Both the position numbers and the translations under genes were made by a program. A stretch of 64,000 bases of DNA, from IMG/VR virus record IMGVR_UViG_3300020576_007701. One strand, given 5' to 3'. The stretch is from a virus (lineage: Duplodnaviria > Caudoviricetes). Below are positions 2,510-12,531 of this stretch, one piece after another. How positions within the stretch are numbered: the stretch's first letter is position 1; each line of letters opens with the position of its first letter. The notes beneath the pieces are model-generated. The model searched no databases and had not been told where the DNA came from. It saw nothing but the letters and a program-made list of their open reading frames with translations.

Positions 2510-3181
2510 ATGCCAGGAATATATCAAATAAAAAACAAAATTAACAACAATATCTATGTTGGATCAGCAAAAGATTTCTCACGACGCATAGGTGAACACA
2601 CAAAATTGTTGAAAAAAAACAAACACCACTCTTCTTATTTACAACATGCTTGGAATAAGTATGGAGAAGATAATTTTATTTTTGGATTACTTGAAGTGGT
2701 TGAAGATTTGTCTCAATTGATTAAGCGTGAACAGCATTACATAGACACTTTAAATCCTGAATATAACATGTGTCCTACAGCTGGCTCTAGGCTTGGGTCT
2801 AAAACCACAAAAGAAACAAGAGAAAAAAATCGTCAAAACGCCACCAAATTTTGGCTTGGTAAAAACCTATCAGAAGAAACTAAGAAGAAGATTGGTGATG
2901 CCAACAGAGGTAATCAACACACTCAGGAAGCAAAAGATAAGATCAGCGCAAATCATAGCAGACATAATCTTGGAAAAAAATTTTCTGAAGAGTCTAAATC
3001 AAAAATGGCAAAGGCTAAAGCAATGCCAATCTCACAATACACATTAGATGGTCAATTTATTCGCTCCTGGGACTCTGGCAAGCATGTTCAGAATGAAACT
3101 GATATGAACCAGGGTAACATAAATAAAGTGTGCCTAGGCAAGTATAAACAAGCTTATGGATTTGTTTGGAAGTTTATCTAA
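2510..3181 (+). CDS. free-standing GIY-YIG homing endonuclease with NUMOD3 repeats and NUMOD1-like C-terminus
   Basis: GIYQI...YVGS, R and E/N catalytic pattern, repeated SEETKKKI / TQEAKDKI motifs, C-terminal QYTLDG...AYGFVW. Confidence 0.9.
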   Translation: MPGIYQIKNKINNNIYVGSAKDFSRRIGEHTKLLKKNKHHSSYLQHAWNKYGEDNFIFGLLEVVEDLSQLIKREQHYIDTLNPEYNMCPTAGSRLGSKTTKETREKNRQNATKFWLGKNLSEETKKKIGDANRGNQHTQEAKDKISANHSRHNLGKKFSEESKSKMAKAKAMPISQYTLDGQFIRSWDSGKHVQNETDMNQGNINKVCLGKYKQAYGFVWKFI

Positions 3182-3893: not shown

Positions 3894-4451
3894 ATGGAAA
3901 ATAAAACAAAATATATTTTAGGCTTAGATATTTCAACCAGTTGTATAGGCTACTCTCTTTTTAATGAAGATGGAAAACTTGAAACTGCAAGCTATGTAAA
4001 GTTTGGAGACAAATTAACATTATTTGAAAAACTAGAAGAATTCAAAAAAGCGATTACTTTTATTAAAGAATATAATGTGGCTTTCATCGCAATTGAGGAG
4101 CCTCTTAAAAAATTCATGGGAAAATTTTCATCAGCTACCACAATTGCGTTATTGAATTTTTTTAACGGAATGGTCAGTTCATATTTGTATTTAGAATTTA
4201 AAATTGAGCCAGTTTATTTTAACGTAAACCACGCACGTAAAGAGGCTTTCCCAACTATGAAGGTTGAAAAAGAGGGTTCCATAAAACATGAGGTGTGGAA
4301 TAAAGTAAAAGAATTAGAGCCATTAATTGATTGGAAATACGGACCTAAGTCTAGAAAACTTCTTGACGAAAACTATGATGTTTGCGATAGTTATGTCATA
4401 GCATTGTGCATGCTTATCACAATTGACAAACAAAAGACACCAGTTGTCTAG
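3894..4451 (+). CDS. RuvC-like Holliday junction resolvase
   Basis: ILGLDISTSCIG, IAIEE and DVCDS acidic RNase H-fold motifs. Confidence 0.8.
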   Translation: MENKTKYILGLDISTSCIGYSLFNEDGKLETASYVKFGDKLTLFEKLEEFKKAITFIKEYNVAFIAIEEPLKKFMGKFSSATTIALLNFFNGMVSSYLYLEFKIEPVYFNVNHARKEAFPTMKVEKEGSIKHEVWNKVKELEPLIDWKYGPKSRKLLDENYDVCDSYVIALCMLITIDKQKTPVV

Positions 4452-4494: not shown

Positions 4495-5478
4495 ATGTCC
4501 AGCGACAAAAACAATCTTTTAATAATCAATATTGTCCAAGGTTTTCTTGGAACACCCAGACATTCAAGCGGTGCTGAGTCAAGGTTGCAATGGGAATTTA
4601 ATTGTCCTTCTCCAAAATGTAGAGGTGATCATAATAAATTTAATTTAGCATATCGCTCTGATTCTAAGATATTTAAGTGCTGGAAATGTAAATATAGCGG
4701 TTTTGTAACAACTCTTGTTGGTAACCACGGATCAAAAGACGATATAGCCAGGCTAAGGCTGGTTTTGCCAAAGTATGACCAATCTAGCTTTCAAACTTTT
4801 AAACGCCCAGATATTGACTATACGTCTATTGCGTGCGATTTGCCAGTGGGATACATGCCGTTATCCCAAGAAAGAAAAAGCAAGCTCTGGGAGCGTGCTT
4901 GGGAGTACATGACAATAGAACGAAAAGTTAGTCTTCCACAAATTGATAAGTTTAAAATAGGTTATACAGAAAACGGACCAAGAAAATATAGAATTATAAT
5001 GCCTTCTTTGAATGCGGCTGGTAGAATTAATTATTATGAAGCAAGAGCTTATTTAAAAGATGCCAAGAGACCGTATTGGAAACCAGACTCACCTCATGTG
5101 CACGATATAATTTATAATGAATATTATATAAATTGGGATTTGCCGATTTACTTGGTAGAGGGTGTTTTTGATTCATACAGAATTCAAAATTCTATACCAC
5201 TACTTGGCAAAACGCCATCTCCTCTTTTGATAAGTAAATTATTAGAGCATAATAGCACTGTAATAATCTGTCTTGACTCAGATGCGTTTAAAGATAGTGT
5301 AGATTTTTACAAAATGCTTTCTTCTCTTGGATTAAATGTTTTTTTTATTGATCTAAAGGGTGAAAAAGATATTTCAAAAATATATGAAGATCATGGGCAA
5401 GAAAGATTAAACGAAATATTAAAGCAGCCAAAAAGAATTGATACTCTTTTTGAAATTAATAAAATACTAAACGAATAA
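4495..5478 (+). CDS. DNA primase (Zn-finger plus TOPRIM)
   Basis: CPSPKC...FKCWKC zinc finger; LVEGVFD and CLDSD TOPRIM motifs; KDI. Confidence 0.85.
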   Translation: MSSDKNNLLIINIVQGFLGTPRHSSGAESRLQWEFNCPSPKCRGDHNKFNLAYRSDSKIFKCWKCKYSGFVTTLVGNHGSKDDIARLRLVLPKYDQSSFQTFKRPDIDYTSIACDLPVGYMPLSQERKSKLWERAWEYMTIERKVSLPQIDKFKIGYTENGPRKYRIIMPSLNAAGRINYYEARAYLKDAKRPYWKPDSPHVHDIIYNEYYINWDLPIYLVEGVFDSYRIQNSIPLLGKTPSPLLISKLLEHNSTVIICLDSDAFKDSVDFYKMLSSLGLNVFFIDLKGEKDISKIYEDHGQERLNEILKQPKRIDTLFEINKILNE

Positions 5479-5510
5479 AATACGGAGTTAAATGTTTTAA
5501 AATATAAAAT

Positions 5511-5813
5511 ATGAAAAGATTAATTAATGCAATAAAAATGGGTTTTTTTACATATAAAAATCCAAAAATTTTTCAGCAATATACTTTTAAAATGCTTGCC
5601 GATTTATTTGAACTAATTTTAAAGGTATCTCATGAGGATAGGCATATGATGACTCATATTGCTTTTATTCATCCAGAAGACGGCACCGAACATCAGATAG
5701 TATCTATTTGGGCTGGAGCTGGTGCCGCTGCAGAACCAACAAAAAGAATAAAAGAATTATTAGAAGAAAACTCTAGGTTAAAAGCATTGTTAAACCAACA
5801 AATTAAAAATTAA
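5511..5813 (+). CDS. hypothetical protein
   Basis: 100 aa ORF in operon context. Confidence 0.6.
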   Translation: MKRLINAIKMGFFTYKNPKIFQQYTFKMLADLFELILKVSHEDRHMMTHIAFIHPEDGTEHQIVSIWAGAGAAAEPTKRIKELLEENSRLKALLNQQIKN

Positions 5814-5834
5814 CAACCATTCATGAAAATTGCA

Positions 5835-5852
5835 CATTTAGCGGATATACAA
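5835..5852 (+). repeat. 18-bp direct repeat, copy 1 (CATTTAGCGGATATACAA)
   Basis: Identical to 6797-6814; the two copies flank the endonuclease ORF. Confidence 0.9.
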
Positions 5853-5893
5853 TTATTTATTTGTGAATGTCAAATATCTATGCTTTTTTATCA

Positions 5894-5900
5894 TATTTAT
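5894..5900 (+). promoter_or_regulatory. putative late promoter TATTTAT of the inserted endonuclease
   Basis: 15 nt upstream of ATG 5916. Confidence 0.5.
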
Positions 5901-5915
5901 CAATAAAAACAAATT

Positions 5916-6788
5916 ATGATAAAATGTGAAATATGCAAACAAGAGTTTAAACAAATTAGTAATACCCATTTAATTGAACACAATATAGATAAAAATGAAT
6001 ATAGAAGACTTTTTCCAGAAGCAAAATTGAAAAGTGTTTGGAATTTAGGCTTAAATAAAGAAAGCGATAAGAGGGTTCTAAAAAACGCCTTGGCGCTTAA
6101 AGCTAATCACTGGGTTAAAGACGAAGAAAAAAAGAAAAACATATCTAATAAAATAAGTCTTAGTAAGACTGGAGGTAAAATAAGTGAGAAAATTAAAGAA
6201 CAATTCAGGCAAAAATATAAAGGTCAAGGCAATCCAAATTTTGGTAACACATGGTCTGATGAACAAAAAAAAGAATCATCTGATAGAATGAAAGAAAAAT
6301 ATAAAGATCCAGAATATGTTGAAAAGTTTAAAAATTCTCATTGGAGTAACAATGAAGAAAAAAAACAAATAGTCACAAAAAAAGCTTCAGAGTATATAGC
6401 AAATGCAATTAGTTTAGGGATAATTAAAATTAATACTGGATATAAATGCGGCTGGATTTATTCTGAAAAAATGAAACAAGAATTTTATTACATGTCTTCT
6501 TACGAACTTAGAAGAATGATTTTATTAGAAAAATCAGAATTGGTAAAAGAGTATACAAACAAACATGGAATAAAATTGCAATACAATAATAAAAAAGGTG
6601 GTTTATCTTATTATATACCAGATATTTTAATTACATTTTACAATGGGGATGTACGTTTAGAAGAGGTAAAGGGCTATGTAAGAGATAAAGATGTTTTTAC
6701 ATTAAAAAATGAAGTTGCAAAATCATATTGTAAAGAAAATAATATAGAGTATAAAATAATATTTAAAAAAGATATAGAAAATTTATGA
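5916..6788 (+). mobile_element. free-standing homing endonuclease (Zn finger, NUMOD3-like, TnsA-like PD-(D/E)XK)
   Basis: CEICKQEF...HLIEH finger; KGQGNPNFG...SDEQKK; SSYE...YIPDIL...EEVKG nuclease motif; flanked by a duplicated gene start. Confidence 0.75.
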
Positions 6789-9700
6789 GAATTTGTCATT
6801 TAGCGGATATACAAGTAAGATTTGGATCTAGACACGACGAGTACAGAGCTGTGTTTAAAAGCCTTATTGAAGATCTTGAAAAAGTAAAACCAGACAGAAT
6901 CGTGGTTGCTGGAGATATTAGCCATCATAAAATAAATATGTCTCCTGGTTCTTTTAATTTAATTTCAGAACTATTAATAGGTTTATCAAGGGTTGCACCA
7001 ACTGATGTGATTTTAGGAAACCACGACATGAACTTGCAACAGTTAGAACAAGGTGATGCAATCAGCCCAATATTCAATCTTTCAAATTTAATTGAAAAAC
7101 ATGCAGATAAAACAGCTTACATTGTAACCGCTGAAAACAAAGATGCATTAGACTATCAAAAGAAAGCTATTTATTATTATCCAGATAGCGGGTTTTACAA
7201 AATTTCTAAAGATTTTGTATATGGCGTTTATTCGATGAAAGACAACAAAATATTAACGCTTGAAAAAAAGGAACCTGGCGTTAATTATGTTGCTCTTTTT
7301 CACGGTCAAATTTTTGGAGCTAGAGGCGATAATGGCCTTATCATTCATGGAGATACCCATTGGAAGCCAACAGTATTTAACAATTTCGACATTGTCATGA
7401 TGGGAGATATCCACGAATATCAAACATTTCGTGAAGATGAATCAATGGCTTATTGTGGTTCTCTTGTACAGCAGAACTATGGCGAGGGCGTTGACAAAGG
7501 ATATCTTCTTTGGAATGTTGAAAACAAAACTCACGAAAGAAAATTTGTGCCAAATGATTTTGGTTTTGCAAAGATAACAATTGCAAAAGGGGAAAAATTT
7601 GAGGAGCGTGTTGAGCACATAAAATTTAGTAGCAATAAAAAGAAAACAAAGGTTTATATTGTTTGGGAAGATTATGAGGAAAATTTTTCTCAGGAAAAAG
7701 AAAATCAAATTGTACGCCTTGTAAAAGATAAGTATGGATGTGAGGTTGTAAAGGTTCAGTTTGAAGCAATGATAAAAGAAATTGTTGTTGACGAAGAAGA
7801 ACAACATGGAGAGTTAAAAGAAGTTGAAGAATATTTAAAAGAATTTATAGTTGCTGGAAATTATAATTGCACTTCAGATGAACTTGTTGAGTTGTTAAAA
7901 TTTCACCAAGAAACAACTGTAGAACTTGGGCTTAATGAAATACAATTAGAAAGTGCAAGGTGGGAATTAAATAAAATTGAAGTGAGCAATATTTTTTCTC
8001 TACCAATAACCCCAACAACCATTGATCTTGATTTATTGGGCGGACTTACTGGAATTTTTGGAAGAAACTACAATGGCAAATCCAATGTTGTAAAAGTTTT
8101 GGTGTGGGGTTTATTTAAAGAAATTCTAGGCGGAGATTCTAATTCTGCTAAATATATCGTTAATATATACACAGATTCAAATAAGGGATATGTAAAACTT
8201 TGGATAACAATTGATGGTAAGAAATATTTAATTGAGAGAAGTGTAAGAACCACACAAAAGAAAGACGGCAGCACATCAAATAGCTACGGTATATCTTATA
8301 AAACACTTGAGTTTGAATATGATGAAGAGGGAAACCTTGATAATGAAAAGTGGGAAAATGAAAAATCCGACTCTGCAACTGCTGAAAAAAACGAAGTTGG
8401 AAAACTTATAGAAAAAGCAATTGGAACATTTGATGATTTCACAAAAACATCTTTACAAACACAGGGTGGAAAAGATGATTATTTAAACATGACTCAACAG
8501 CCAAAAAATAATTTGGTTAGTAAGTATATGGGTTTAGAAACGTATAAAGATAGATACGAATATAGAAATGAAAATTTTAAAGAAATAAAGAAAAAACAAA
8601 AAGAGCTTGGAGATAGACCAGCGCTTGAAGATAAAATACACACGCTTCAAATTGAAAGAGATGCAAAGAAAAAAAATTACGATGACTGCGTTTCAGAAAA
8701 AGAAAAAGCTTTGCAAAGTAAAGAGGGAGTTGATGTTGAAATTCTAAATTTAACTAAAAAATTAGAAAAGGTAGAGTTTGTTGAAATAAATGATATTGGA
8801 AAAATAACTTATAGTTTAAATCAAAAGGATTTAGATTTAAAAAATAAAACCAAAGAAGCTTCTGATTTAACAGAATGGTTAGCTAATAATTTTAAAAAAG
8901 AATTACCATTTGACAACACGTTATCCGAAGACCAATTAAAATCTCAGCTTTCAGCAGAACAATCGGCGTTAACAAGAGAAGAAAACTCTAAAAAAACAGT
9001 GTTAGAATGGCTTGCTTTAAATGATGTTAAGACCATTGAGTCTGATGCAACAGTTGAGCAATATGCAAAAAGCATAGAGGAAATAACAAAAAAAATATCA
9101 ACCCTAGAAGGTCAATTATTAACTTTTAAGGGCAAGAGCTGCCCTACTTGTGGAACTATACACCAGCAAGCAAATCCACACAAAGAAGAAGAGTGTATTG
9201 AGGAAATTAAAATGTGTAAAGAATTATTGGCGCATAAAAGAAAATTAATTAATTCAAATAACGAAGCTAAGGAACATAACAATTTACATCAGACAAATAT
9301 TGATAAACTTAGCAATATCAAACAAAGTCTATTAAACAGATTAGATAAAATTTCTTCTATAAAAGAAAAAATAGATTTATTTTCGAGATCTTCAGATATA
9401 ATAAAACACAACGACTTGGTTGAATCTAACTATAAAAAATTAACAGCTGCAAAAAAAGAAGTAGATTTTTTTAATAGTGAAATTAAAAAGTTAAACGAGA
9501 TGCTTGTTAAAATAAAAAACAATGAATCTAAAATAGAAACAAACGCAGGTATCCAACTGCAAATAGATGATAAAAACGAATTGTCAAGAGCTTATAAGAT
9601 TACAATTTACAACATGGATAAACAAGCTACAATTTTATTTGGAGAACTTAAAATTGTAGAAAACAATATAGAAAATTATAAGCAAAAACTTATTGATATA

Positions 9701-10252
9701 AGCGAGTACGAAAAGGAGTATAGAAAGTATTCAATATATTTGCAAGCAATGCATAGAGATGGAATACCAGCTCTTATTATACGAAAAAAACTACCGCTTA
9801 TCAACCATAGAATAAATACCATTTTGCAACAAGCAGTAGATTTTCAAATACAACTTTCTATACTTGAAAACGGAGATATTGTGGAAACCTTTTATTTTAA
9901 TGAAGACAAATCAGATACTCTTCCACTTTCTTTTGCTTCTGGCGCTCAAAAATTTGTATCTACAATAGCTATAAAAGATTCTTTGCATTATATTAGCAGT
10001 CTAACAAAGCCATCTCTTTGTATTATTGATGAAGGTTTTGGCACCTTGGATGATGAGCTTACCTTTGAAATTATGAATATTTTGAATTATTTAAAGAATA
10101 AACATAAGAACGTGATTGTTATAACACACAGAAGTGAAATTAAAGATTTTGCAGATAACATTATTGAAGTAACAAAAGTGCAAACTGGCTTAACTCAAGA
10201 AATGTTAGATAAAAATCCTAAGGCTGGAATAACAACGCTAAGAATAATATAA
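6785..10252 (+). CDS. fused SbcD/Mre11 nuclease - SbcC/Rad50 ATPase (T4 gp47/gp46-like)
   Basis: Metallophosphoesterase motifs (ADIQ, AGD, GNHD, FHG, GDIH); Walker A GRNYNGKS; coiled coil with CPTCG zinc hook; SGAQ signature; IIDEGFGTLD Walker B; ITH. Confidence 0.92.
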   Translation: MRICHLADIQVRFGSRHDEYRAVFKSLIEDLEKVKPDRIVVAGDISHHKINMSPGSFNLISELLIGLSRVAPTDVILGNHDMNLQQLEQGDAISPIFNLSNLIEKHADKTAYIVTAENKDALDYQKKAIYYYPDSGFYKISKDFVYGVYSMKDNKILTLEKKEPGVNYVALFHGQIFGARGDNGLIIHGDTHWKPTVFNNFDIVMMGDIHEYQTFREDESMAYCGSLVQQNYGEGVDKGYLLWNVENKTHERKFVPNDFGFAKITIAKGEKFEERVEHIKFSSNKKKTKVYIVWEDYEENFSQEKENQIVRLVKDKYGCEVVKVQFEAMIKEIVVDEEEQHGELKEVEEYLKEFIVAGNYNCTSDELVELLKFHQETTVELGLNEIQLESARWELNKIEVSNIFSLPITPTTIDLDLLGGLTGIFGRNYNGKSNVVKVLVWGLFKEILGGDSNSAKYIVNIYTDSNKGYVKLWITIDGKKYLIERSVRTTQKKDGSTSNSYGISYKTLEFEYDEEGNLDNEKWENEKSDSATAEKNEVGKLIEKAIGTFDDFTKTSLQTQGGKDDYLNMTQQPKNNLVSKYMGLETYKDRYEYRNENFKEIKKKQKELGDRPALEDKIHTLQIERDAKKKNYDDCVSEKEKALQSKEGVDVEILNLTKKLEKVEFVEINDIGKITYSLNQKDLDLKNKTKEASDLTEWLANNFKKELPFDNTLSEDQLKSQLSAEQSALTREENSKKTVLEWLALNDVKTIESDATVEQYAKSIEEITKKISTLEGQLLTFKGKSCPTCGTIHQQANPHKEEECIEEIKMCKELLAHKRKLINSNNEAKEHNNLHQTNIDKLSNIKQSLLNRLDKISSIKEKIDLFSRSSDIIKHNDLVESNYKKLTAAKKEVDFFNSEIKKLNEMLVKIKNNESKIETNAGIQLQIDDKNELSRAYKITIYNMDKQATILFGELKIVENNIENYKQKLIDISEYEKEYRKYSIYLQAMHRDGIPALIIRKKLPLINHRINTILQQAVDFQIQLSILENGDIVETFYFNEDKSDTLPLSFASGAQKFVSTIAIKDSLHYISSLTKPSLCIIDEGFGTLDDELTFEIMNILNYLKNKHKNVIVITHRSEIKDFADNIIEVTKVQTGLTQEMLDKNPKAGITTLRII
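6797..6814 (+). repeat. 18-bp direct repeat, copy 2
   Basis: Identical to 5835-5852. Confidence 0.9.
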
Positions 10253-11613: not shown

Positions 11614-12531
11614 ATGCTACTGCCAGTAAACACCGAAGAGACAAAGATACCAGACTTAATAGTTGAAGGTAAAAAAATTCACATTAGCTATAGTGAATTT
11701 TCCTTATTTTACCAGTGTGGCCATAGACACCTTCTTGAAAAACATCTAGCTATTTTAGCACAACCACCATCAATTCATCTATATTTTGGTAATGCAATTC
11801 ACGCTTCTATTGAAACTGTTTTAAAAGAACATTTAGACATTGAGAGTCGTGTGTCTTTTTTTAGAAATACCTTCACTAAATCAATGAAGGAAAATATGAA
11901 GGATACCATTGATTATAAAAACAATTTTGAAGATTTTTTAGATCAAGGTGAAAATATACTTAGAATACTTGATTTTGAAAGCATATTTAAAGATTACGAA
12001 ATTATAGCTATCGAAGAGGCTTTGTATGAAAACTTGCATTCTCACTTTTATTTTAAGGGTTTTATTGACTTAGTTGTTCGTAATAAGATTACAAAAAAAT
12101 ATAAAATATTTGATTGGAAAACATCTGGGTCAGACTGGGATGTTCCTAAAAAAATTAAAGATGAAATATTTCTTGCTCAAATGAGATTCTATAAATTCTT
12201 TTGGGGAAGAAAAAACAATATTCCACTTGAAGATATTGAGTGTGGATACGTTGTTCTTAATAGACTTAGAAATAAAAAAGACCCAAAATCTTATCCAGGA
12301 AATATTCAAAGAGTAGATGTAAATTCTACAAACTCAGAAATAAAAAGTTCTCTTAACAAGCTCGCTCTTGCAGTAAAGTCAATACACATTGACAAATATT
12401 TTCCAAAAATAAAACAAACAGCTGGTACAAATGGCTGCTTCTTTTGCCCACTGAAAGGTGGCAATCACCCACATTGCGATTCTACAAAAAGACAAGACAA
12501 GCTTTTCTTAAAAGAGTATAAGAAAAACTAA
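11614..12531 (+). CDS. PD-(D/E)XK exonuclease, RecB/Cas4-like
   Basis: SYS...C, GNAIH, E, GFIDL, DWKT, Q..FY motifs and C-terminal CFFCP...C (Fe-S type cysteines). Confidence 0.8.
   Translation: MLLPVNTEETKIPDLIVEGKKIHISYSEFSLFYQCGHRHLLEKHLAILAQPPSIHLYFGNAIHASIETVLKEHLDIESRVSFFRNTFTKSMKENMKDTIDYKNNFEDFLDQGENILRILDFESIFKDYEIIAIEEALYENLHSHFYFKGFIDLVVRNKITKKYKIFDWKTSGSDWDVPKKIKDEIFLAQMRFYKFFWGRKNNIPLEDIECGYVVLNRLRNKKDPKSYPGNIQRVDVNSTNSEIKSSLNKLALAVKSIHIDKYFPKIKQTAGTNGCFFCPLKGGNHPHCDSTKRQDKLFLKEYKKN

Follow-up and report, generated by a model that had tools for sequence, protein, structure and literature searches.

A putative homing endonuclease cassette that carries a substitute 5′ end for a phage Mre11-Rad50 gene

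Introduction

Free-standing homing endonuclease genes (HEGs) of phages that carry no duplicate of an invaded gene include mobE, found in nrdA of Aeh1, and mobA, found between genes 39 and 60 of T4. Barth et al. 2023 (PMC10448857) describe HEGs that adjoin genes essential to phages. At the yeast gene FBA1, each WHO element combines an endonuclease gene with a gene end that confers resistance; the displaced gene fragment acts, according to the authors, as a recombination site, and the homing model has been tested experimentally (Coughlan et al. 2020, eLife; PMC7282813). Gene hybrids involving mORFs have been described in fungal mitochondria, at atp6 of Allomyces macrogynus and at atp6, atp9, cox2 and nad3 of Glomus (Beaudet et al. 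2013, PMC3630166). Here we describe a locus in a 64,000-nucleotide stretch of viral DNA (Caudoviricetes; IMG/VR record IMGVR_UViG_3300020576_007701), referred to throughout as the window, in which a predicted endonuclease gene lies after the first codons of a gene for a fused Mre11-Rad50 protein and is followed by a second version of those codons. Coordinates are those of the window unless another locus is named. A preliminary description, made from the letters of the window alone, had likened the arrangement to the gene-end duplications beside fungal mitochondrial homing endonucleases, and this analogy is apt (PMC3630166, PMC7282813). We judge it very likely that the element is a homing endonuclease cassette of the free-standing kind, which supplies a new 5′ end to the Mre11-Rad50 gene without splicing and spreads by homing.

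Results

Placed after codon 10 of the Mre11-Rad50 gene, the cassette measures 962 bp and is read, like the sequences around it, from the plus strand. Immediately upstream is an orphan start, MKIAHLADIQ (ATGAAAATTGCACATTTAGCGGATATACAA, 5823-5852), made up of the displaced native first 10 codons. The cassette then consists of a leader (5853-5915), which begins where homology to the empty site ends, a gene for a nuclease of 290 amino acids (5916-6788) and a replacement start, MRICHLADIQ (ATGAGAATTTGTCATTTAGCGGATATACAA, 6785-6814). The replacement ATG overlaps the nuclease stop codon as ATGA, with the nuclease TGA falling within the ATG of an open reading frame (ORF) of 1155 amino acids (6785-10252), so that full-length Mre11-Rad50 would be made without splicing. 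Orphan and replacement start are identical at 26 of 30 bases and include an exact 18-bp direct repeat (CATTTAGCGGATATACAA), with its left copy at 5835-5852 and its right copy at 6797-6814. Both the repeat and the ATGA overlap had been reported in the preliminary description and were found as given there. The orphan reading frame continues into unrelated sequence and ends at a TAA at 5904-5906, after 27 codons. In the window the orphan and the nuclease ORF, which are 93 nt apart, share a frame; at the other occupied loci they do not, and an in-frame fusion of orphan and nuclease was rejected because the match holds in the window only.

To assess how often such repeats occur, the first 30 nt of each ATG-initiated ORF of at least 100 amino acids, on both strands of the 152,940-bp contig, were compared with the 1.6 kb upstream. 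Start repeats matching at 22 or more of 30 positions were found in two cases only, the Mre11-Rad50 locus and an unrelated ORF at contig position 12311. Positions 5700-6900 are identical in four contigs from four independent sequencing runs, which also answers the concern, raised with the first account of the repeat, that it might be an assembly artefact. The phage is present in runs SRR32380198, SRR32380203, SRR32380193 and SRR10761721. Given its rarity in the genome-wide scan and the four identical independent assemblies, the repeat is due neither to chance nor to mis-assembly.

A DNA search of GenBank phages returned no match, and protein matches were distant only. Searches of IMG/VR, a protein-cluster collection and JGI metagenomes yielded 25 informative loci, of which 11 are occupied, 12 are empty and 2 are remnants. 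The nearest relatives of the window are empty: L007 and L008 (∼91% Mre11 protein identity) and L031 (83%) have the same upstream gene followed by uninterrupted MKIAHLADIQVRFG, as had been predicted for relatives without the endonuclease ORF. Nine further, more distant genomes are also empty. The left flank of the window, including the orphan and the short spacer after the upstream stop codon, aligns base for base with the empty relatives. Homology resumes at GTAAGA after the replacement start, and the breakpoints lie exactly between CAA and GT. The ORF starting at 6785 is collinear with the empty-site genes from residue 1, and from codon 11 onward it matches L007 (VRFG, ∼91% amino acid identity). 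As counted from the alignment, the real start of L007 is matched at 28 of 30 positions by the window orphan and at 25 of 30 by the replacement start. The replacement start itself looks chimeric; its first 12 nt are cassette-like (ATGAGAATTTGT), the next 18 nt equal the orphan, and L007-like sequence follows. This pattern points to a crossover or gene conversion within the 30-nt repeat.

The occupied loci are the window, L004/L010, L011, L013, L014, L017, L018, L019, L021, L022 and L023. Note that the nuclease proteins of L022 and L023 are identical, so that these 11 loci represent 10 distinct genomes. Every one of them contains an orphan start, a leader of ∼60 nt, a nuclease ORF, ATGA and a replacement start, in that order, the orphan preceding the nuclease ATG by about 60-65 nt; both remnants also have the ATGA overlap. 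Protein identity of the nucleases ranges from 43% to 100% among the occupied loci and from 47% to 68% relative to the window, and the nearest known relatives of the window nuclease are 64-68% identical to it. Orphan and replacement start agree at 14-22 of 30 positions in the other occupied genomes, against 26 of 30 in the window. The orphans themselves are preserved to different degrees: MKIAHLADIQ is intact, with TAA or TAG immediately after it, in L018, L021, L022 and L023; a stop is found at codon 10 in L011 and L019; the ATG is lost in L013, two codons are lost in L014, and the L010 orphan is heavily mutated. The distant L017 has the orphan MKIAHLADIH and the working start MNNFRIAHLADVH. 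In L014, a small upstream ORF (L014:2671-2940) reads through the decayed orphan and ends at the junction stop (...YIMAHIADIQ), and the stranded gene start now encodes the C-terminal residues of this different ORF.

In the remnants L005 and L042, orphan and leader are gone along with most of the nuclease; the last 13-17 nuclease codons, ATGA and a cassette-type start have been kept. These are independent deletions (L005:3950-4003 and L042:1550-1603) with different upstream genes and nearly the same nuclease tail before the Mre11 ATG. Retention of nearly the same codons in both suggests that the tail is needed for expression of the host gene, as a translation initiation region or through coupling.

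The nuclease contains a CxxC...HxxxH finger, NUMOD3-like repeats and a C-terminal TnsA-like PD-(D/E)XK domain. Residues 210-282 match Pfam family PF08722 (Tn7_TnsA-like_N) with 29.4 bits, the curated cut-off being 26.5. In an alignment of 15 homologues, C4, C7, E197, P235-D236, E249-E250 and K252 are invariant, so that the catalytic set E197, D236 and E250-x-K252 is present in all 15; H18 and H22 are nearly invariant, and the NUMOD3-like motif GNPN(F/Y) is conserved. A profile search against the sequences of the PDB gave nothing useful, and a fold search was required. The AlphaFold model has a mean pLDDT of 78, exceeding 84 across most of the nuclease domain, and its top Foldseek matches are TnsA structures (1t0f/1f1z, E 4e-5). 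Family, alignment and fold thus agree in confirming, at the level of sequence and predicted structure, the TnsA-like PD-(D/E)XK assignment first put forward in the preliminary description. With its catalytic residues intact, the protein is predicted to be a site-specific DNA endonuclease. Nucleotide identity by codon position is 59% at third positions, compared with 76% and 83% at the others; because third positions are the most divergent, the nuclease is under purifying selection.

Conservation among the cassettes starts exactly at the orphan ATG, the 14 nt to its left being 33% identical. Nucleotide identity is 78% for the orphans overall, 86% for the six orphans that retain ATG, 77% for the replacement starts and, on average, 75% for the leader among nine cassettes. 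By comparison, silent-site identity is 59% at nuclease third positions and 46% at Mre11 third positions. Since the ATG-keeping orphans are 86% identical, compared with 46-59% at silent sites, neutral drift after a single insertion long ago does not account for the orphans. The differences among them are mainly synonymous, and the starts of empty sites resemble the orphans more closely (85%) than they resemble the replacement starts (74%). These values fit two histories: repeated homing, which would keep turning working starts into new orphans, or retention of the orphan as a homology arm. A maximum likelihood tree was built from Mre11 residues 11-215, and on it occupancy needs at least four changes on well-supported branches. 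The window falls in a clade (support 100/99) with two empty genomes, and another clade (99/99) holds four occupied loci, two empty loci and one remnant.

At the left end of the cassette, the consensus TAACTAAT places an in-frame stop directly behind codon 10 of the orphan in 7 of 10 loci; the window has TTA. The sequence TATAAATA, or a near match, lies 10-15 nt before the nuclease ATG in most loci, and the window has the late-promoter-like motif TATCAATA (5898-5905) inside its leader. Note that TATAAATA is twofold enriched in the window as a whole (23 found versus 11 expected). It is a reasonable guess that the leader octamer is a putative T4-type late promoter. The leader RNA gave a consensus fold of −0.5 kcal/mol without covariation, and no sign of a start-masking hairpin was seen.

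Codon 4 of the replacement start encodes Cys (TGT or TGC) in 8 of the 11 occupied loci and in remnant L042, and in none of the empty sites. The window sequence ATT TGT (Cys4) is common to seven other occupied loci and L042. The preliminary description had suggested that the changes AAA to AGA (codon 2) and GCA to TGT (codon 4) might confer immunity to cleavage; AGA at codon 2 is found in two loci only. Through Cys4 and synonymous changes, the cassette start could plausibly resist cleavage by its own nuclease.

The 1155-residue host protein is a fused Mre11(SbcD)-Rad50(SbcC) nuclease-ATPase, with a Pfam Metallophos domain at residues 1-212 and AAA_23 farther along. Its best PDB matches are Mre11 structures; they include that of T. 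maritima and that of P. furiosus, with which the alignment starts at residue 1. The host gene had earlier been taken for sbcD; the SbcD (Mre11) part of that assignment stands, and the gene is not sbcD alone, being fused with Rad50(SbcC). Residues 5-10 (HLADIQ) are metal-binding motif I of Mre11-Rad50, and the insertion point after codon 10 is at the end of this motif (D8-x-Q10). D8 is present, and position 10 is Gln in the window (6806-6814) and most relatives, as opposed to the canonical D-x-H; His occupies it in L006, L009, L017, L037 and L038. Gln is unusual at an Mre11 metal-ligand position. Mre11 and Rad50 form one 1155-residue polypeptide in the window and are likewise fused in all relatives found, whereas T4 has separate gp47 and gp46 proteins. 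The coiled-coil region of the window protein contains a zinc-hook-like CPTC motif.

The left flank of the insertion is a gene of 100 amino acids (5511-5813, plus strand), collinear with the gene before the empty site in L007 and L031 and, by eye, ∼85% identical to that of L007 at the nucleotide level. It had no Pfam or PHROG match, and these searches assign it no function. Farther upstream lie a primase gene (4495-5478) and, before it, a gene for a RuvC-like resolvase (3894-4451). At every locus the neighbours are a primase, small ORFs and Mre11-Rad50. The same replication/recombination module contains a free-standing GIY-YIG+NUMOD3 endonuclease gene (2510-3181). GIY-YIG or NUMOD genes also occur close by in L014, L018, L022 and L023, in varying positions and orientations. 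Because such genes recur nearby at varying positions, the region is a hotspot for HEGs.

Elsewhere in the genome, ∼30 kb ahead of the window (G000:C1:58148-60000, equivalent to L026:2149-4001), the start of gmd is overlapped by an ORF for a LAGLIDADG_2+NUMOD3 endonuclease. Within the 64 nt upstream of this ORF is an orphan copy of the gmd start that carries a frameshift (MEIKK.. / ..KTVLITGIPGQ, compared with MENIKQKKIALCFGITGQDG). The layout is the same, so an unrelated nuclease appears to be used there in the same start-replacing design. Start duplication as a trait of the whole TnsA-like family was considered and rejected, since the homologue in Moonbeam lies before RNase H without an orphan and the homologue in LR756508 splits a gene.

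A second insertion site was seen within the host gene. In three relatives (L007:4001-8507, L018:3867-6870 and L012 (LR756508.1):2974-7199), Mre11-Rad50 is divided between two ORFs immediately behind the GDIH metal motif, at a point corresponding to ∼7405-7450 of the window, with no codons duplicated. The nuclease at this split is DUF559/Vsr-like in L007 and L018, and is a TnsA-like homologue of the window nuclease in the huge phage LR756508. Despite the different nucleases, the tails of the N-terminal ORFs (..(D/E)E(D/S)EL(D/E)xY..GW..) and the heads of the C-terminal ORFs (G(R/K)K(I/V)(K/R)I(K/R)RK) are conserved across lineages, and these may be peptides that hold the two halves of Mre11-Rad50 together. 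An Rfam search of the mid-gene insert of L007 gave no credible intron match.

Discussion

The locus consists of an orphan start, a nuclease gene and a substitute start in a fixed arrangement; its site is found empty, occupied and as a remnant, and the nuclease is intact and under purifying selection. By analogy with the yeast WHO elements and the fungal mORFs, we infer that the nuclease cleaves and that the cassette is currently mobile. During a mixed infection, the nuclease would cut cassette-free alleles in or near the motif I codons, and the break would be repaired from the occupied genome. The gene body would serve as the right homology arm, and the orphan, together with the upstream gene in close relatives, as the left. 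Repair would copy the nuclease gene and the substitute start into the recipient, whose own start would become the new orphan, remaining upstream as a short dead ORF. The direct repeat would offer a route to precise loss by recombination, and sloppier deletions would give remnants such as L005 and L042.

Several observations weigh against this scheme. The distance matrices of nuclease and Mre11 are broadly congruent, and none of the loci compared combines a near-identical nuclease with a divergent background, so that prolonged vertical inheritance, with losses, could account for much of the distribution. The signal for a co-converted flank to the right of the cassette is weak and patchy; nt 91-180 are nearer to L013 or L003 than to L007, in 60-nt windows only. 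An arm of 30 bp on the left is short for recombination, as T4 needs roughly 50 bp. Ala4 is kept in two occupied cassettes, L011 and L021. Replacement starts show no unusual codon choice either: the G+C content of third positions (GC3) over codons 2-13 is 0.33 in occupied and 0.32 in empty alleles, with no significant difference from the rest of the gene in either, and deliberate recoding of the replacement start is therefore unsupported.

The congruent matrices would suit a relic or domesticated gene that entered once, long ago, and has been inherited with occasional deletions, its nuclease kept for some other job or for translation of Mre11-Rad50, with no homing now. The modest identity of the window nuclease to its nearest known relatives agrees with such a history, and the universal ATGA overlap and the nuclease codons kept in both remnants look as if they were required for host gene expression. 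In a relic, however, the orphans would be useless, yet those with ATG are far better conserved than silent sites and differ mainly at synonymous positions. The tree forces at least four changes of state, with empty sites nested among occupied ones, and the catalytic residues are invariant in every homologue aligned. We consider this account unlikely. A history resembling transposition is highly improbable: staggered cuts made 18 bp apart by the TnsA-like enzyme would have left the 18-bp repeat as the target-site duplication of a 944-bp element ending in ATGAGAATTTGT. The exactness of the repeat in the window and a nuclease domain of the Tn7 TnsA type are what such a history would offer, but the TnsA C-terminal domain and TnsB/TnsC-like genes are absent from the window and from every related locus inspected. 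Moreover, the repeat is inexact elsewhere, the duplicated stretch is 30 nt counted from the ATG rather than 18, the element is always in the same site of the same gene, and its homologue in Bacillus phage Moonbeam is an ordinary free-standing gene without a repeat.

A spliced element, whether a group I or II intron with an ORF or an intein, would explain why a nuclease ORF sits within a conserved catalytic motif, as is typical of introns and inteins. Against it, positions 5000-8000 contain no Rfam match at E≤1, just 63 and 26 nt outside the nuclease ORF are non-coding, no RNA fold is conserved, and the ORF is delimited by stops instead of being fused in frame. In addition, five relatives have an intact gene without a usable first exon, the corresponding sequence being missing from L005 and L042 and destroyed in L010, L013 and L014. 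Splicing and protein splicing are thus excluded as far as sequence can tell, and the absence of an intron core and an intein asserted in the preliminary description holds, the orphan being dispensable in relatives. The related idea of an artefact or chance repeat is countered by the concordant assemblies and the genome-wide scan, and we find the spliced and artefactual explanations, taken together, barely credible.

The preferred explanation, a homing cassette that replaces a gene start, can be extended. In the extended form, the cassette would be an active member of an undescribed phage class that replaces gene starts; it would cut at motif I, use the orphan as a portable left arm enabling entry beside unrelated upstream genes, and owe its immunity to the change from GCA to TGT. 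The design would be general in large phages, and TnsA-like PD-(D/E)XK enzymes would be added to the homing families. We put this forward tentatively, as a possibility that falls a little short of persuading us.

If the cassette behaves as proposed, a homing endonuclease has colonised the coding sequence of an essential phage gene without an intron or intein, by carrying a spare start. Because its sites occur naturally in empty, occupied, decaying and deleted states, the family makes a cycle of invasion, decay and loss directly testable. Earlier invasions may have left traces in phage genes as short stranded mini-ORFs and as unusual N-termini, Cys4 among them, and annotation should take account of this. 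The TnsA-type fold may define one more family of homing endonucleases, one whose coding target is long and conserved. Intron homing in T4 needs gp46/47, the counterpart of the Mre11-Rad50 host gene here, and the target of the cassette may be the very nuclease that processes double-strand breaks during homing.

Free-standing phage HEGs resemble the cassette in occupying a conserved site of an essential DNA-metabolism gene and in having modular NUMOD-type DNA-binding repeats; theirs are intergenic or gene-splitting insertions, whereas here the gene stays whole through a duplicated start. Tn7 TnsA (PDB 1f1z, 1t0f) has the same catalytic fold and the same acidic and lysine residues. The phage locus lacks the C-terminal domain of TnsA as well as the TnsB/C/D partners and transposon ends of Tn7, and its nuclease, like those of phage HEGs, bears NUMOD3-type repeats together with a zinc-finger-like motif. 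In a 2012 survey of PD-(D/E)XK enzymes, TnsA appears only as a transposase, and the collection of papers that we searched gave no phage description, no 5′-end version and no homing endonuclease of the TnsA type.

The closest likenesses are fungal. WHO elements also home without splicing, carry a substitute gene end and leave the native end as a nearby fragment; they differ in acting at the 3′ end of a nuclear eukaryotic gene, in their intein-derived LAGLIDADG-type nuclease and in forming tandem clusters. The phage cassette supplies a 5′ end of 10 codons, encodes a putative TnsA-like PD-(D/E)XK nuclease and leaves a single orphan. The mORF hybrids likewise combine an endonuclease ORF in a coding region with a foreign duplicate gene end, and there too the native end is nearer to relatives than the inserted one. 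Their duplicate is C-terminal, their nucleases are LAGLIDADG or GIY-YIG enzymes of organelle genomes, and in some cases the ORF continues the host gene in phase; in the phage the duplicate is N-terminal, and the separate ORFs are joined only by the ATGA overlap. The locus therefore has the substitute end and the persisting native end of the gene-end-replacing class, and, as the end replaced is not the 3′ end, it is a mirror-image variant. The principle of homing with a substitute gene end is known for fungal 3′ ends; the phage 5′-end version, whose biochemical steps we infer, appears to be new and is well supported by the comparative data.

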